The notes below the pieces were generated by a model, which saw nothing but the letters and a program-made list of their open reading frames with translations, did not search any database and was not told where the DNA came from. The position numbers and the translations under genes were made by a program. From a virus, in the IMG/VR virus record IMGVR_UViG_3300034112_000721, positions 32,001 through 96,000 of that record: a DNA stretch of 64,000 nt; one strand, written 5' to 3'. Below are positions 3 to 63,351 of the stretch, one piece after another. Within the stretch, counting starts at the first letter, position 1, and every line of letters starts with the position of its first letter.

Positions 3-3000
3 AAATGTAGAAGCTTGTGTTAGTTTCTCAGATTGAGCTCTTGCCGTTAATTCTTGAATTGCATTTATTTTTTTCTCAGTAAATTCAGAATTTATTTTAT
101 CTATAGCAGCTTTATCTGCAACTAATTCTAATGTATATTTCTTTCCAACTTCAAAACCTTGCTTAACATTATTCTTATTGACTAGTTCACCTGTTGGACC
201 ATTATATCTTAAACCTTCTTTTGATTTGTACAAAATAAGTTCTCTTACTCTTAATCCTGATTTATATTTTACCTCCGCGTATTGTCCAACATTCATCTGA
301 AGATCTACATCATTAATTGTTGCTTTTGTCCCCTTTGGTATATTAATAGGTCCTTTTTCTACACGTTCTTCTGTTTTAGCTAAAGCATCTAATGCAGCTT
401 TTCTTTCAGCTTCCAATCTTGCCAAAGTAAGATTTAAAGCAGTATTATCTGCAGATCTCCCCTTTGGATTTAACTTTCTTACAGCAGCAGCTCTTTCAAA
501 GAATATAGCATAATTGTCATATTCTGGATGACCTTCTTTAATAACTACCTTTCTTGTGTCATCATAAAATTCAGTAGGTATAGTTGCTGTTCTTAAAAAT
601 TCTGCAGCTTCATCTTCACTAATATATACATTTCTATCTGCTAATTCATTTAGCAATGCGTTAAGCTCTATATTATCAAGTTGTTGATTAACTATATTAG
701 AGAAGTAGTCTCTTCTATTATTGTAAAGATTACTCATCCAAAGATAATTTCTTTGGACATGATCCATAAAATCTCTTGGATTATTTAATACGTTTACATA
801 GTTTGCAAGAATAGAAGATTCTTTACCCAACTTGTAATTATCTAATATCATTTCAAAAGCAGCCTCAGCCTCTTCTGATAAATAAATATCTCCTGTAGAA
901 TTTGCAATAGCTTTTAAATACTCTTTGTATGCATTTTCCAAATTAGCTTCAACTTCTAATCTATTTTCATTAGTTCTTTCACCAACTCTATTTGCTCTAT
1001 TTATTTCTTTTCTGAGTTGAACTTCTGCTTCATCTATAGAAATGTTATTTTCATCAGCTATATTTTGTAGCTCACCTGATTCTTTAAACTTTTCTATGAT
1101 TTCATTTACTTGATTATTTTCAAATTTATCATAGTTTTTATATGCCTCTGATAATGCCTCAAGTGCTTTTAACTTATTTTGTTTCTTTCTAAGTTCTTCT
1201 GGTGATAATACATTTTTTTGAGCTTCTATTTCTTCTTTTAAAATATTACGCTCATTAAACATTCTACTTGGTTCTAATAATAACTGAATCTCAGAGTCAG
1301 TCATTTTAGATAATGGTTTAGATGATTTAATTTTAGTACTAATATCCTTCATTCTCTTTACAGCATCTTGATAAGAAGACCCCATAAAGATTGCATTCAT
1401 TTTTGCTACTTCCCAAGCCTGACTAAATAACTGTGCCTGTTTATATGCATCTGTTCCTTTTTCATACTGTGAAATATCTATAGGATTAACATATTTATCA
1501 TTTATTTTATCATAGTTAGTTTTGATTTCATTCATTCTTTGAACTATACCATCTATTCTTGATTGATATTTTAATCCCTCTCCTTTGGGAATATTTTGAA
1601 CAGCATCTTCAAATTCCTCTGGCGTTAAGTCTCTAAATGATTCAATTCTTTCTTTAAACATATCAAGTGTTCCAGATCTCAATGCTGTTACAACTTGTGA
1701 TACTAAAGCAAAATCTTTAGCATCTAATACATTTTTTCTTCCACCCTCCTGAATAATCTTTGTAAGTATTTCTTGATTACCAAGATTAAATAATTTAGAA
1801 TCAAAAAATTCTCCTGGATTCTCATTATATAATTTAGTAAGTGTTTCCGCAATACTCTCACCAAATGCATTCTTTTTATTTTTATAATCTGCATAGTGTT
1901 CTGGTCTAAACATTCTGTTATAACCATTAGATGCCCAGTTTGGAAGATTATTAATTGGACTAGCAAAAGCACCCATTATAAATCCAGTAGCAAATGTTTC
2001 AAATCCTTGTTTTGTAAATGGATTTTGATTTGCCCATGCATCTTTAAAGTAAGATGCTTTACTTCTACTTGCATCTGCAATAGCACCTTTAGAATATAAA
2101 TGAGCTTTAACAGCATCTGAGTTAAAAGTATTTACATAATAATTACCTAGAGCTTCAGATATTGTTTCCTGAAAGTTTTCTTGTAAACCTTCTCCAATAT
2201 TTGCTTTAAAATATTTTCCTAAACCAACAACAGATTTTGCAGAAAGATTTTTAAAACCAGCTTTAAAACCATCCTCTCTAAGTCTTTTTATACTTCCCCT
2301 TATACCATTTTCTACATATGTAAACTCACCCTTTGCAAGTTTTTTACCTTCTTCTTTTATTGTTTTAAAAACTACCTTACCTCTTTCAAGATTTAAAATC
2401 TCTTTAGTTCTTGCACCCAAAATACTTGCTGTTCCCTTTCCACCTGCAATACTTGGAAATACAAGTTTGTTAGATAAATAAATAACTCCTGTATTCCAAC
2501 CTAAATTCTCTAGACCAGCTTTTTCAGATTGTACCATCATATCATACATCTGTTTGTTAGATGGAGCCTGCCCAGTATTTTTGTAATGCAAATTATATAA
2601 ATCATAGTAGACTTTATTTTGTTGCATACCACCTTCTAGTTTAGCTTCAGTAACAGCAGCATTTATAAATTTCATGTCTCTATAAAAGCCGCCAGCAGTC
2701 TTTGAAAGTTTTGCAAGAGATGTTAAATTACCAAAGGCTTGAGCCTTTCTAATATCATTCATTGCATCAAATGTATTACCCAATGGATTTATAAATTTTC
2801 CAATTGGTGTATTTACCGCTTTCCAAAAGTTTCTTGCTGTTTGACTTGATTCTAATGTTTTTACTGCCGTGCCAAAAGCTTTATCTAAGTTTCCAAATAG
2901 TTTTCCAACTTTAGCAATCTTTGCAACTGCAGAAGCATCAGCAGTAGCCTCAAGAGCACCTGCTGCAGGTATACCAGCTCCAGTAGCCACTAATCCAGCT

Positions 3001-58254: not shown

Positions 58255-58887
58255 TTATTCGTTATCATAAAACATTCTTTCTGAATCTTCTGTATGCCAC
58301 TTATCAAATCCCTCACAGTTATAGTAATCTTTATTAACTAAGTAATCTGGTTTTTCAGGGAATGGTTTAGTTACAAAACTTGGTTCAGACCACTTGATTC
58401 TATTATTTGGTTGAAGAGCTATTTGTCCGTTGTCAAGTAAAATCACATGATGACTCTTGTGTTCTAGTGGGTCTTCTGCTAAAGATATGTCAGTATTAAT
58501 ATCTCCGCTACCCCAGTTTATTGTTGCATAGTAACTACCTGGGTAGAACTTGTGATCTTTCATATATACTTCTACAGGAGTATCATACAAATATGATAGA
58601 TGTAACAAAGTAAAGTTATAAGAGAAACAATTCCATATCTGTAGAAAGTGAAATGGTAGATCTGGATCTGGTAACTCAGGCTTAGTCAGTAGGGCATGGC
58701 TTGGTAACTTGTCTCTAAGTACGCCATTCTCTAACAATACCTGGAACAATGCTGCTTGTCCTGGTAGACATCTTACAGATATAATTACCCCCGGGGTAAA
58801 TTCTCCATGACCTTTTGTACCTTGGTACATGTACTCATTCCTAACAAATACCTTGAGAGGAAAGAAGTTGTGTTCTATGTATGCCAT
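58255..58887 (-). CDS. Conserved phage protein of unknown function
   Basis: VRNEY...GHGEF...QIWNCFSY...EHKSHH...NGQIALQPNNR motifs, widespread in aquatic phages. Confidence 0.7.
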   Translation of the reverse strand: MAYIEHNFFPLKVFVRNEYMYQGTKGHGEFTPGVIISVRCLPGQAALFQVLLENGVLRDKLPSHALLTKPELPDPDLPFHFLQIWNCFSYNFTLLHLSYLYDTPVEVYMKDHKFYPGSYYATINWGSGDINTDISLAEDPLEHKSHHVILLDNGQIALQPNNRIKWSEPSFVTKPFPEKPDYLVNKDYYNCEGFDKWHTEDSERMFYDNE

Positions 58888-60183: not shown

Positions 60184-60410
60184 ACAAATATACAACTGTA
60201 TTTTAATATTCCAAACCGGTGGTAAAAATATTTTGTTTTAGAGATTGTTAGGGACCCCTAGTAGCCAGACCCCCCCACCTGCCGCGCTTGGTGCTACCCC
60301 CTACTTCTTTCTACTAGACATGTTGAATTGTAGAATAATTTGTAAATGTTTTACAGCTGGAAGTTTCTGGTACTTCTTTCTACAGATGTTGAATCATTAA
60401 AATTTTTATC

Positions 60411-60641
60411 ATGAAAAAGTTACTTGTTACTGTTATGTTCTTTGCTGTTTTGTTTGGTGTACCAATGATGTTTTATTGGGTAGTGTTCTATATATTATAT
60501 ATGGGCTTTGCGGTAGATATTGTTATTAGCTTCTTGATATCTCTTATGGGTAGTGTGACCATGTTTCTTGGACTTGTTAAGGTTGCTGAGAAGTTAGTTA
60601 ATAAGGGTTTGGATATATACATTATTGATATGAGAAGATAA
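60411..60641 (+). CDS. Early small membrane protein
   Basis: 76 aa with two hydrophobic segments; preceded by the motif and followed by a hairpin. Confidence 0.7.
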   Translation: MKKLLVTVMFFAVLFGVPMMFYWVVFYILYMGFAVDIVISFLISLMGSVTMFLGLVKVAEKLVNKGLDIYIIDMRR

Positions 60642-60683
60642 GGGCTTTGCCCTTTCTTCTTGTACTTCTTCTTACTTGTTTAG

Positions 60684-60786
60684 AATATAACAAGGAATGT
60701 TTCCTGGGGGAGCAAGGCCAGCCGTGGCTACTGCTTAATATACCTACGAGAGGAAGTCCTACGGAAACACTTGTTATATTTTTTTT
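60684..60786 (+). ncRNA. Structured ncRNA A
   Basis: AATATAACAAG/CTTGTTATATT and TGTTTCC/GGAAACA close a three-way junction; U-tract at the end; no ORF. Confidence 0.65.
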
Positions 60787-60828
60787 ATACTTCTTCTTAC
60801 TTGTGTTAAACTATTAAAATTATTTATT

Positions 60829-60978
60829 ATGAAAGATTTTGTTAACTATTTGATTGCTGTTGTATCTATGGGTTGTATAACAGGTTTACTTGTTTCTATG
60901 GGATCTCAGATCTTATTAGCTATGGGAATTATGTCTTTATTTTGGGCAGGTATGTTTGCGCCAATGTTAAGGGGATAA
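60829..60978 (+). CDS. 49-aa two-TM early protein
   Basis: MKDFVNYLIAVVSMGCITGLLVSMGSQILLAMGIMSLFWAGMFAPMLRG. Confidence 0.7.
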   Translation: MKDFVNYLIAVVSMGCITGLLVSMGSQILLAMGIMSLFWAGMFAPMLRG

Positions 60979-61030
60979 TTCCCCTTTTATACTTCTTTGT
61001 ACTTATTAAGAACCAATAAAATTTTATGCT

Positions 61031-61105
61031 ATGGGAACTGTAACTTATGTTATTATCAATGGAGTTTTAACTGTTAAGTCTTGGGTAAAGAACCCCAATG
61101 CTTAA
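61031..61105 (+). CDS. 24-aa early peptide
   Basis: MGTVTYVIINGVLTVKSWVKNPNA; AACCAATAAA leader; own motif and terminator. Confidence 0.55.
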   Translation: MGTVTYVIINGVLTVKSWVKNPNA

Positions 61106-61185
61106 TGGTTTAAGTTAAGGGAGAGCAATCTCCCTTTTCTTTTGTACTTATTTATACATATTAGAAACCAATAAATTATTTACTT

Positions 61186-61353
61186 ATGGAAGAGACCAGA
61201 TTAGTTATGACTTGGGAAGAATACAAGTTACTATTAGATGTATTAAACCATGTATATCACCAGACAGATTACAAACCAATAAATGATTTGTATGTCAAGT
61301 TATACATGCAGATGAATGCGCGTAAAGTAGAAGATATAGAGTTACCCTTTTAA
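61186..61353 (+). CDS. 55-aa early protein ending in DIELPF
   Basis: MEETRLVMTWEEYKLLLDVLNHVYHQTDYKPINDLYVKLYMQMNARKVEDIELPF. Confidence 0.75.
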   Translation: MEETRLVMTWEEYKLLLDVLNHVYHQTDYKPINDLYVKLYMQMNARKVEDIELPF

Positions 61354-61380
61354 TAGGGTAATTCTTTCTACTTATTTAAT

Positions 61381-61506
61381 AAAAGTTAGCCAAGGAATGT
61401 AAAGTGTTTTACCGGTGGAGAAAGTAGACTTTGGTGCTGATAATCAAGCACTTACAAAAAGCAAGTTTTTACACAAATTAATACCGCACAAAGCCTTGCT
61501 TATTTT
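61381..61506 (+). ncRNA. Structured ncRNA B
   Basis: CAAGG/CCTTG closing stem, TGTAAAG/TTTTACA stem, GGTGCT/AGCACT hairpin; shares CAAGGAATGT with ncRNA A. Confidence 0.5.
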
Positions 61507-61575
61507 GTCCTTCGGACAGCTTTTATTATACTTCTTTTTACTGTTTTAGATTATTAACCTTTTAATTTATTTATT

Positions 61576-61911
61576 ATGTCTAAAATTAATTTTAGTGAAA
61601 CAAAGTCCTTGGTTGAATTCTTTGGTCAAATATCTGCTACTGATTTGCAGATTTGTCAAAGTAAAAGAACAGGTGGGTTATATGTAGTATTCAAATGTGC
61701 TGATGGTACAGAACAGAATGCTATGTTGGCAAAGTCTATATCTAATATAGATGCTAACAATGCTGCTGATTTGCAAGTATCTTGGATAGAAGGTACTACA
61801 GAAACAGGTAACCCATTGGAAGGTTTTATGATTCATCCAACAGGTGAGCGTAAAGTTGTATCCAACTTTAGCCTTGCAGACCTTACTGCAAAGGTTGGTG
61901 CTATTGGTTAA
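61576..61911 (+). CDS. Early hypothetical protein
   Basis: 111 aa; preceded by the motif and followed by a strong terminator. Confidence 0.8.
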   Translation: MSKINFSETKSLVEFFGQISATDLQICQSKRTGGLYVVFKCADGTEQNAMLAKSISNIDANNAADLQVSWIEGTTETGNPLEGFMIHPTGERKVVSNFSLADLTAKVGAIG

Positions 61912-61920
61912 TAGTACAAC

Positions 61921-61957
61921 AAGAGATAGTGTCAGAAATGACACTATCTTTTTTTTA
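61921..61957 (+). terminator. Intrinsic terminator (others at about 60640, 60969, 61117, 61339)
   Basis: AGATAGTGTCA-GAAA-TGACACTATCT followed by a T-tract. Confidence 0.85.
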
Positions 61958-62247
61958 TATTGCCTTCGGCAGCTTTTGTTTTACTTCTTTCTACTTAGTG
62001 TGGTAGGATATGTGTAGAGACAAGAACCTGTTATATGTATAATTTTTTTTATTTGGCTGTTACTAACCCAAGTTACTGTCAAAATATCTCTTACGCGCGT
62101 GTATGTTTGTTTAAATAAGTGATAGTATCTTGTTTATAGTAAACCTATTACACTATTCTCTACCACTAATAACTCTCTATATTCTATATATAATACTTTA
62201 GTATTATAACAAGATTTTATATAGCTAACCCTTTAATCTTATTACCT

Positions 62248-63253: not shown

Positions 63254-63327
63254 AGTCCCATAGCTCAACTGGATAGAGCAACACACTTCTAATGTGTAGG
63301 TTACAGGTTCGACTCCTGTTGGGACTA
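63254..63327 (+). tRNA. trnR: tRNA-Arg (anticodon TCT), no encoded CCA
   Basis: AGTCCCA/TGGGACT acceptor stem, TAGCTCAACTGGATAGAGC D-arm, ACACA-CTTCTAA-TGTGT anticodon arm, GGTTCGACTCC T-arm. Confidence 0.95.
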
Positions 63328-63351
63328 CTTCTATTCACTAAAATTAATTAC

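Follow-up and report, generated by a model that had tools for sequence, protein, structure and literature searches.

The prohead RNA (pRNA) of phi29-like phages is made from an early promoter, is essential for packaging and, as far as is known, is found in every member of its phage group; its sequence is poorly conserved, and two of its loops pair intermolecularly. Other viral RNAs are decoys, including adenovirus VA RNA I, the EBV EBERs, the phage RNA anti-CRISPRs (solitary repeat mimics) and the pseudo-ToxI of PhiTE. Phage T4 makes two small stable RNAs, species 1 and 2 (rnaC and rnaD), that are dispensable for laboratory growth. Among crAss-like phages, the Cellulophaga phage phi14:2 produces abundant early non-coding RNAs from its g004-g005 and g005-g006 intergenic regions, and the early transcripts of its virion polymerase have no common upstream motif (bioRxiv 10.1101/2020.03.07.982082).

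Here we analyze a short non-coding element in an uncultured phage known from an IMG/VR virus record. The record spans 112.5 kb and carries direct terminal repeats; the window, by which we mean the whole stretch of 64,000 nucleotides that was analyzed, corresponds to its bases 32001-96000. Judged from its proteins, the phage is crAss-related: one protein has the Pfam crAss muzzle domain, the relatives of its capsid protein include crAss-like phages, Cellulophaga phages and Leptolyngbya phage Lbo-JY46, and a 4143-aa ORF upstream of the window (G000:C1:14695-27126, minus strand; the same as L146:96-12527) carries a single DFDVD at residue 2494. The motif DFDxD is the catalytic motif of the crAss-like phage virion RNA polymerase (bioRxiv 10.1101/2020.03.07.982082). 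The 4143-aa protein matched no PDB chain (phmmer) and no PHROG, and if it is a virion RNA polymerase, it would be a very divergent one. Elsewhere in the window, a 210-aa protein (58255-58887, minus strand) falls in PHROG 3704, annotated as a ferredoxin under ‘moron/host takeover’. This protein has 475 relatives in IMG/VR, the best 80 of them at 90-100% identity, which suggests that the phage group is very abundant in the sampled environments.

A structured RNA of about 100 nt outside Rfam

The element at 60684-60786 on the plus strand (Table 1) encodes a stand-alone small RNA, structured and about 100 nt long, of a family outside Rfam. An earlier note, made from the letters of the window, had read here perfect 11-bp and 7-bp stems around a GAA bulge, followed by a three-way junction, and this reading is exact. 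The minimum free energy and centroid structures from RNAfold both reproduce it (−35 kcal/mol, z −4.49), and none of 200 dinucleotide shuffles folded as well as the element; the minus strand folds more weakly (−28.4 kcal/mol). Overall, the closing helix comprises about 23 bp and ties the 5′ end to the 3′ end, and six bases form the junction segment between the P2 and P3 arms. The element is also richer in GC than its surroundings, as the earlier note had said (0.42-0.43 vs. 0.23-0.38 in the flanks). The 5′ end of the RNA is predicted at or near 60684, and because a U-run comes right after the closing helix, this helix appears to double as an intrinsic terminator in the window phage.

Table 1. 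Features of the element and its immediate surroundings, in window coordinates.
Feature	Sequence or pairing	Position	Strand	Basis
Left edge of the RNA unit: intrinsic terminator hairpin, belonging to the 76-aa micro-gene before it	AAGGGCTTTGCCCTT + T-rich tail	60640-60662	+	terminator scan
Phage-type promoter motif	TACTTCTTCTTACT, then TTAGAAT	60663-60687	+	motif listing
Closing helix, 5′ strand (P0, GAA bulge, P0′)		60684-60704	+	RNAfold
P0, 11 bp	AATATAACAAG with CTTGTTATATT	60684-60694 with 60770-60780	+	sequence reading, RNAfold
Bulge between P0 and P0′	GAA	60695-60697	+	
P0′, 7 bp	TGTTTCC with GGAAACA	60698-60704 with 60763-60769	+	sequence reading, RNAfold
P1, with two G-U pairs	UGGGG with UCCUA	60705-60709 with 60757-60761	+	RNAfold, homologues
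P2 arm	GAGCA-A-GGCCA-GCCG loop-UGGCU-AC-UGCUU	60710-60736	+	nearly invariant in consensus
Junction AAU, then P3 arm and variable link to P1		60737-60756	+	homologues
P3 hairpin	CCU-ACGAG-AGG	60743-60753	+	homologues
3′ strands of P1, P0′ and P0		60757-60780	+	RNAfold
U-run behind the closing helix; cassette end		60781-60787	+	sequence reading
Following copy of the motif, heading the 49-aa micro-gene at 60829-60978; right boundary of the RNA unit	TACTTCTTCTTACT	60788-60828	+	

Homologues were collected from protein-anchored loci, by blastn and by three DNA-pattern scans, and then with a covariance model. The model recovers 50 copies, 28 of them distinct, in IMG/VR and JGI metagenome contigs; one contig bearing the RNA is a Tara Oceans scaffold. 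Covariation across these homologues backs the closed-stem three-way junction that had been claimed from the single sequence. In the 28 distinct copies, 92.8% of cells pair and 16 of the 32 pairs show double changes, whereas pairing falls to 37-50% (about 45%) when the 3′ partners are slid, and none of 500 shuffles reached any observed measure of pairing or covariation. All seven scored pairs of the outer helix have changes on both sides, and 7 of the 12 pairs of the middle helix covary. Two pairs of P2 carry compensatory changes, one from C-G to U-A (six sequences) and the other from G-C to A-U (three). The pair 60741-60754 covaries as well (U-A in 15, C-G in 5), which extends P3 and leaves A60742 bulged. 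Four G-U pairs in the core are conserved, and their minus-strand equivalents are C-A mismatches; these conserved G-U pairs point to the plus strand only.

Conservation is strongest in the interior. Across copies, P2, the junction AAU and all eleven P3 bases show little or no change, and P3 is invariant both in all 28 distinct copies and in 21 of 21 copies found by a pattern that did not contain P3. The near-invariant module is about 45 nt long and runs from P2, which includes an A/AC internal loop and a GYCG tetraloop, through the AAU of the junction to P3. The outer stems, P1 and the promoters turn over among copies, the closing helix being the least conserved part of the RNA, and the proteins at RNA-bearing loci are only about 50% identical to those of the window phage. 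Since the letters of P2 and P3 are held while all of these diverge, selection seems to act on sequence, beyond pairing. P1 is of another sequence in three loci (L109, L124 and L136). In two of them (L124:1290-1500, minus strand; L136:1565-1775, plus strand), the invariant P2-P3 module stands beside this different P1 and conservation between the two copies runs well past the module, which, in a two-sequence consensus fold, apparently lies inside a longer RNA.

An optional cassette of promoter, RNA and terminator

The earlier note had credited the RNA with its own expression unit, and the surroundings bear this out: a copy of a repeated phage promoter motif lies immediately before the RNA, and the closing helix and its U-run form a putative terminator. 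The motif TACTTCTTnnTACT...TTAGAA occurs in nine same-sense copies, all confined to 1.7 kb of the window (60302-61982). Every copy comes after a hairpin, and a terminator scan found 10 terminator-like sites in this region against 0.8 expected. Behind each copy stands either a micro-gene or a non-coding unit; the element is the third unit of the series, and the array adjoins a strand switch at which the leftward structural and lysis genes stop (about 59946). The motif copy of the element ends 7 nt ahead of the first paired base, and the next copy begins straight after the U-run; because motif copies directly flank the element, we take the RNA unit to be 125 nt long (60663-60787). Two other motif-headed units, 61369-61530 and 61982-62050, are without a convincing ORF, and the former has the 5′ words AAGGAAUGU in common with the element. 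Compared with shuffles, the non-coding units 61385-61530 and 61995-62050 had no significant fold (z −0.74 and −0.25).

A similar layout recurs in other lineages. In at least six, the closing helix starts 6-8 nt past the lineage's own repeated motif (TACTTCTTCTTACT, AACATCTTATTACT, ATACAACTCATTACT, CAGCTTTATACT, TACATCTTAATACT or TTAAGAAACTTTTATAAT), which also heads the adjoining micro-genes, and in a group of four loci (L085, L097, L091 and L120) a near-consensus sigma70-type promoter, TTTACG-17-TATAAT, lies upstream. Of the evidence available, this constant motif-helix spacing under unrelated promoter types argues best for a transcript that begins at the helix base. Promoter specificity seems to drift together with lineage, and the repeated lineage motifs are candidate early promoters of the crAss-type virion polymerase. 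Homologues of the crAss-type lineages likewise finish in T-runs. The module is present without a following U-run in L085, L092 and L138; in L085-type phages no terminator lies behind the RNA and further non-coding sequence comes next, so the RNA there may be one domain of a longer transcript.

Further conserved elements accompany the RNA in some of these phages. A second structured RNA (L085:5930-6020, minus strand; also in L091, L120 with two copies, L100/L131 and L125) occurs behind or alongside the element in L085-type phages. Its closing stem is AGAGAGU/ACUCUCU, with a U-run; its hairpin reads UUGGYUAGUGCACAURRCCACCA, and the sequence AAUACAGARAUA is also conserved. This second RNA had no Rfam match and is absent from the genome of the window phage. 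A larger RNA in L085 was considered and set aside, as its 426-nt fold was not significant (z −1.85). Directly behind the RNA in another group (L088:532-650, plus strand; L097:~1620-1737, minus strand; L110) lies a third conserved non-coding element, which is apparently closed by UUGCGGA...UUCCGCAA and contains GGGCCAUAAGCCAGUCAAACGCG.

The unit of promoter, RNA and terminator is a modular, optional cassette. In three relatives (L017, L014 and L011), the lysin, the switch region and the downstream micro-genes are about 90% identical to the window, and the RNA unit is missing exactly: these phages have only the terminator, the promoter and the orf49 homologue, where the window, after terminator and promoter, has the RNA and a second promoter before orf49. 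An indel between two promoter repeats accounts for the difference. Among 24 relatives with a recognizable switch region, a single one (L002, 100% identical) carries the RNA. Two pattern scans of 185,579 bacterial genomes gave no true copy; the first returned zero matches, and two Pseudomonas matches in the second were dismissed as chance, being inside coding sequence and covering 27 nt of P2 only. GenBank phages had no blastn match to the 1.2 kb around the element. The family is known so far only from uncultured crAss-related and similar aquatic phages.

A short variant of the RNA occurs at three loci (L036:4215-4291, minus strand; L142:9877-9941; L143:1438-1502), in the same promoter context as in the window. 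This variant keeps the 11-bp and 7-bp outer helix with its GAA bulge, and a single hairpin replaces the three-way junction. The hairpin covaries (ACUC-UUGC-GGAGU vs. ACUCU-UGCUUGC-AGAGU), and the whole folds with a z score of −5.2. Because the outer helix is kept here around a plain hairpin, the scaffold may have a role of its own.

Known families, cellular RNAs and the proposed role

The earlier note recognized no Rfam family, and a scan with Rfam 15 agrees, finding nothing at the element at the gathering score or at E ≤ 10. The gathering-score scan of the window found only a tRNA-Arg at 63254, and the E ≤ 10 scan of 60400-61100 gave two chance matches, both outside the element. Eight homologous loci had no matches to Rfam, and the L085 region had one chance match to a snoRNA. 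No equivalent RNA is described in the literature searched. Two of the roles that the earlier note had suggested gained no support. A tRNA mimic, or any tRNA, tmRNA or tRNA-like RNA, finds none in ARAGORN or Rfam, both empty at the locus, or in the structure, which has no T-arm and, with loops of 4 nt (P2) and 5 nt (P3), no 7-nt anticodon-type loop. The sole tRNA in the window, an Arg-TCT at 63254-63328 found by ARAGORN and matching the Rfam tRNA-Arg, lies 2.5 kb from the element, and most RNA-bearing loci have no tRNA by ARAGORN. An antitoxin is likewise unsupported, since the locus has neither a repeat array nor an adjacent toxin gene.

Other known classes fared no better. A phi29-type pRNA is excluded both by distribution, as the RNA is missing from L017, L014 and L011 and from 23 of the 24 switch-region relatives, and by structure, as there is no RF00044 match and the GYCG and ACGAG loops allow only 2-3 pairs; the Y of the GYCG loop varies without a compensating change in the ACGAG loop. 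The existence of close relatives that do without the RNA also speaks against a packaging RNA, a replication primer or any other essential machine part. For self-cleaving ribozymes (hammerhead, twister, pistol, hatchet, HDV-like), Rfam gave no match and the junction has no CUGAUGA or GAAA hammerhead core. A cis riboswitch does not suit the window, where the RNA ends in what appears to be its own terminator and a separate promoter copy heads the next gene. Bacterial Y RNA (YrlA) was rejected because conservation is lowest in the closing helix, a T-arm is absent and Rfam gives no match, and bacterial RNase P RNA of type A because a search of the phage genome with RF00010 at E ≤ 10 came back empty. 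Neither Rfam nor conservation gave support to group II domain 5, the SRP Alu domain, the end of the tmRNA tag frame, 5S loop E, a CsrA site or mini-ykkC.

Coding potential was equally poor. Inside the RNA, a 13-codon ATG...TAA frame, MFPGGARPAVATA, runs from 60696 to 60737 of the window. This frame is found in 10 of the 28 distinct copies, the others having no ATG or being frameshifted by 1-nt indels, and its start codon is buried in a helix. No single frame is open across all copies, and we therefore rejected a protein-coding micro-gene; we judge the 13-codon frame to be a probable by-product of RNA conservation. A 56-aa TTG ORF at 60647-60817 is not conserved.

The element has a few words in common with cellular RNAs. 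The comparison covered the 16S, 23S, 5S and RNase P RNAs of E. coli, and the host of the phage may differ. Twelve nucleotides, GGAGCAAGGCCA, equal E. coli rnpB 243-254 in the P5/J5-15/P15 region; ten, UACGAGAGGA, equal 23S 2656-2665 in the sarcin-ricin loop; and nine, GGGGAGCAA, occur in 16S. Three sense words of at least 9 nt compare with 1.2 expected, a 12-mer was reached in 8 of 500 shuffles, and antisense words against the same four RNAs were 8 nt at most. The 12-mer is not kept letter for letter among homologues. For a sarcin-ricin mimic, we take the criteria to be a C-G-closed GAGA tetraloop and the bulged-G motif (G2655, U2656-A2665). The equivalent of G2655 is C, and that of A2665 varies (A/U/C/G); moreover, the covariation of 60741-60754 sets P3 in the register CCU/AGG with a five-base loop, not in the GAGA-tetraloop fold, and this mimic is disfavored. 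The RNase P, sarcin-ricin and 16S words are at or near chance level, of marginal significance and picked out post hoc, and they serve as leads only.

Our overall reading, to which we give a tentative probability of about 45%, is that the element encodes a trans-acting, stable binding or decoy RNA for host takeover or counter-defence. Transcription of the RNA would fall in the first moments of infection and would probably be the work of the virion RNA polymerase, which would use the repeated motif. With both ends buried in a helix, the RNA would accumulate, and it would act in trans and stoichiometrically, the invariant P2-junction-P3 face binding and titrating a conserved partner, for which a host protein or enzyme is the likeliest candidate. 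The early timing is drawn by analogy from phi14:2, and the ends and abundance of the RNA are likewise presumptive; giving the motif TACTTCTT to the virion polymerase is a guess, because the early transcripts of phi14:2 have no common upstream motif. Of the classes named in the earlier note, a decoy or anti-defence RNA is the most plausible, and we favor it on indirect evidence, namely the optional nature of the cassette, the extreme conservation of its core and its place in an array of micro-units that each have a promoter at their head. Letter-level conservation within helices points to protein recognition or to mimicry of a fixed cellular RNA rather than to a small-molecule pocket. The patchy distribution of the cassette resembles the pattern of phage accessory and counter-defence genes. 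A narrower proposal, possible but on balance doubtful, is that P2-junction-P3 is a counter-defence device, either a mimic of a conserved host RNA site that would draw off a defence nuclease or toxin or a sponge for an immune signalling molecule, and that many aquatic crAss-related phages would carry this device in the form of a swappable cassette.

Protein recognition would fit the sequence-level invariance also if the partner came from the phage itself, with the RNA as subunit or scaffold of a phage-encoded ribonucleoprotein whose module binds a phage protein, such as a polymerase, a nuclease or an early micro-protein. The unit does lie among early micro-genes, and phi29 pRNA is a precedent for a three-way-junction RNA that works with phage proteins. 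However, no gene adjoins or co-occurs with the RNA across all loci, the neighbor clusters being lineage-specific and without a Pfam or PHROG family, and the close relatives without the RNA show that it is not part of an essential machine; we regard this arrangement as unlikely. A free-standing small-molecule aptamer, which would sponge up an immune or stress nucleotide or sense a metabolite without an expression platform, is improbable. Riboswitch aptamers likewise combine a three-way junction, a variable P1 and a conserved core, and many copies of the RNA would suit titration, but the invariance runs through the paired parts of P2 and P3, where aptamers usually covary. Moreover, no riboswitch family matches, and with a terminator at the end of the RNA and a separate promoter for the next gene, nothing would be controlled in cis in the window.

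The hairpin before every motif copy, the likeness of closing helix and U-run to a terminator and the short variant, which keeps the scaffold only, around a simple hairpin, could all be accommodated by an element that acts mainly on transcription, whether as a strong terminator, as an insulator or as a hairpin preceding or belonging to the next promoter, with an incidental junction. We consider this very unlikely, because it is the inner module and not the scaffold that is conserved across lineages, and the module also occurs without a U-run (L085, L092 and L138). The preceding gene, moreover, already has a terminator, and relatives without the unit keep terminator and promoter intact. Less probable again is a mimic of a conserved cellular RNA site, either the P5/J5-15/P15 core of RNase P or the 23S sarcin-ricin loop, that draws off an enzyme or toxin. 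The exact E. coli words of 12, 10 and 9 nt favor it, but their significance is marginal and was judged after the fact in a comparison limited to E. coli RNAs. RF00010 and the all-family Rfam scan were empty at E ≤ 10, the 12-mer is not conserved, and the P3 register and the C at the bulged-G position contradict a sarcin-ricin loop. We give least credence to catalysis by the RNA, through self-cleavage or otherwise, and to a role as mRNA for the micro-ORF MFPGGARPAVATA. A junction with invariant unpaired bases would be compatible with a ribozyme and the 13-codon frame does exist in the window, yet no ribozyme family matches, hammerhead core motifs are absent, and the frame is confined to 10 of the 28 distinct copies, with its start codon inside a helix.

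Comparison with known systems

The element, at about 100 nt and with a structure backed by covariation, is an unusually tractable case of what would be an early non-coding RNA in a crAss-like phage. Its invariant module of about 45 nt must be recognized by something, and natural strains with and without the cassette are ready-made comparisons. If the partner proved to be a host defence or part of the core machinery, the RNA would be an RNA-based addition to the takeover and anti-defence repertoire of Bacteroidota-type phages. The upstream lineage motifs, in turn, supply candidate early promoters of the crAss type, which were left undefined in the work on phi14:2 (bioRxiv 10.1101/2020.03.07.982082).

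With phi29 pRNA (RF00044), the element has in common that it is a phage RNA of similar size (about 100-170 nt for this type) with a three-way junction and a long, bulged helix that joins the ends. In contrast to pRNA, it is optional, has a near-invariant core and carries loops that permit only 2-3 mutual pairs. The likeness to viral decoy RNAs lies in the proposed mode of action, in which a small and stable structured RNA, strongly expressed and closed by a terminal stem, would titrate a host protein or defence. There is no sequence or structural homology to these RNAs, and the element has no CRISPR-repeat-like or ToxI-like repeat unit; the tie would thus be one of resemblance in likely action rather than of membership. 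T4 species 1 and 2 are small, stable and dispensable phage RNAs, as the element would be, but they lie in a tRNA cluster and are processed with the tRNAs, whereas the element is 2.5 kb away from the only tRNA of the window. Three-way-junction riboswitch aptamers, the purine class among them, also have a variable P1 that closes a conserved junction with two arms, but the element has no expression platform, no gene under cis control in the window and no Rfam match, and its helices are conserved by sequence instead of covarying.

The RNAs of phi14:2 resemble the element in being non-coding and in their origin from the early region (presumptive in the window phage) of a crAss-type phage that carries a giant virion RNA polymerase. 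The covariance model of the element had no match in the first 9 kb of phi14:2 (best 14.8 bits, E 0.08). Unlike the element, with its roughly 100 nt, the phi14:2 RNAs are long and intergenic, and no shared early promoter motif was found in phi14:2, whereas in the window array a motif heads every unit.
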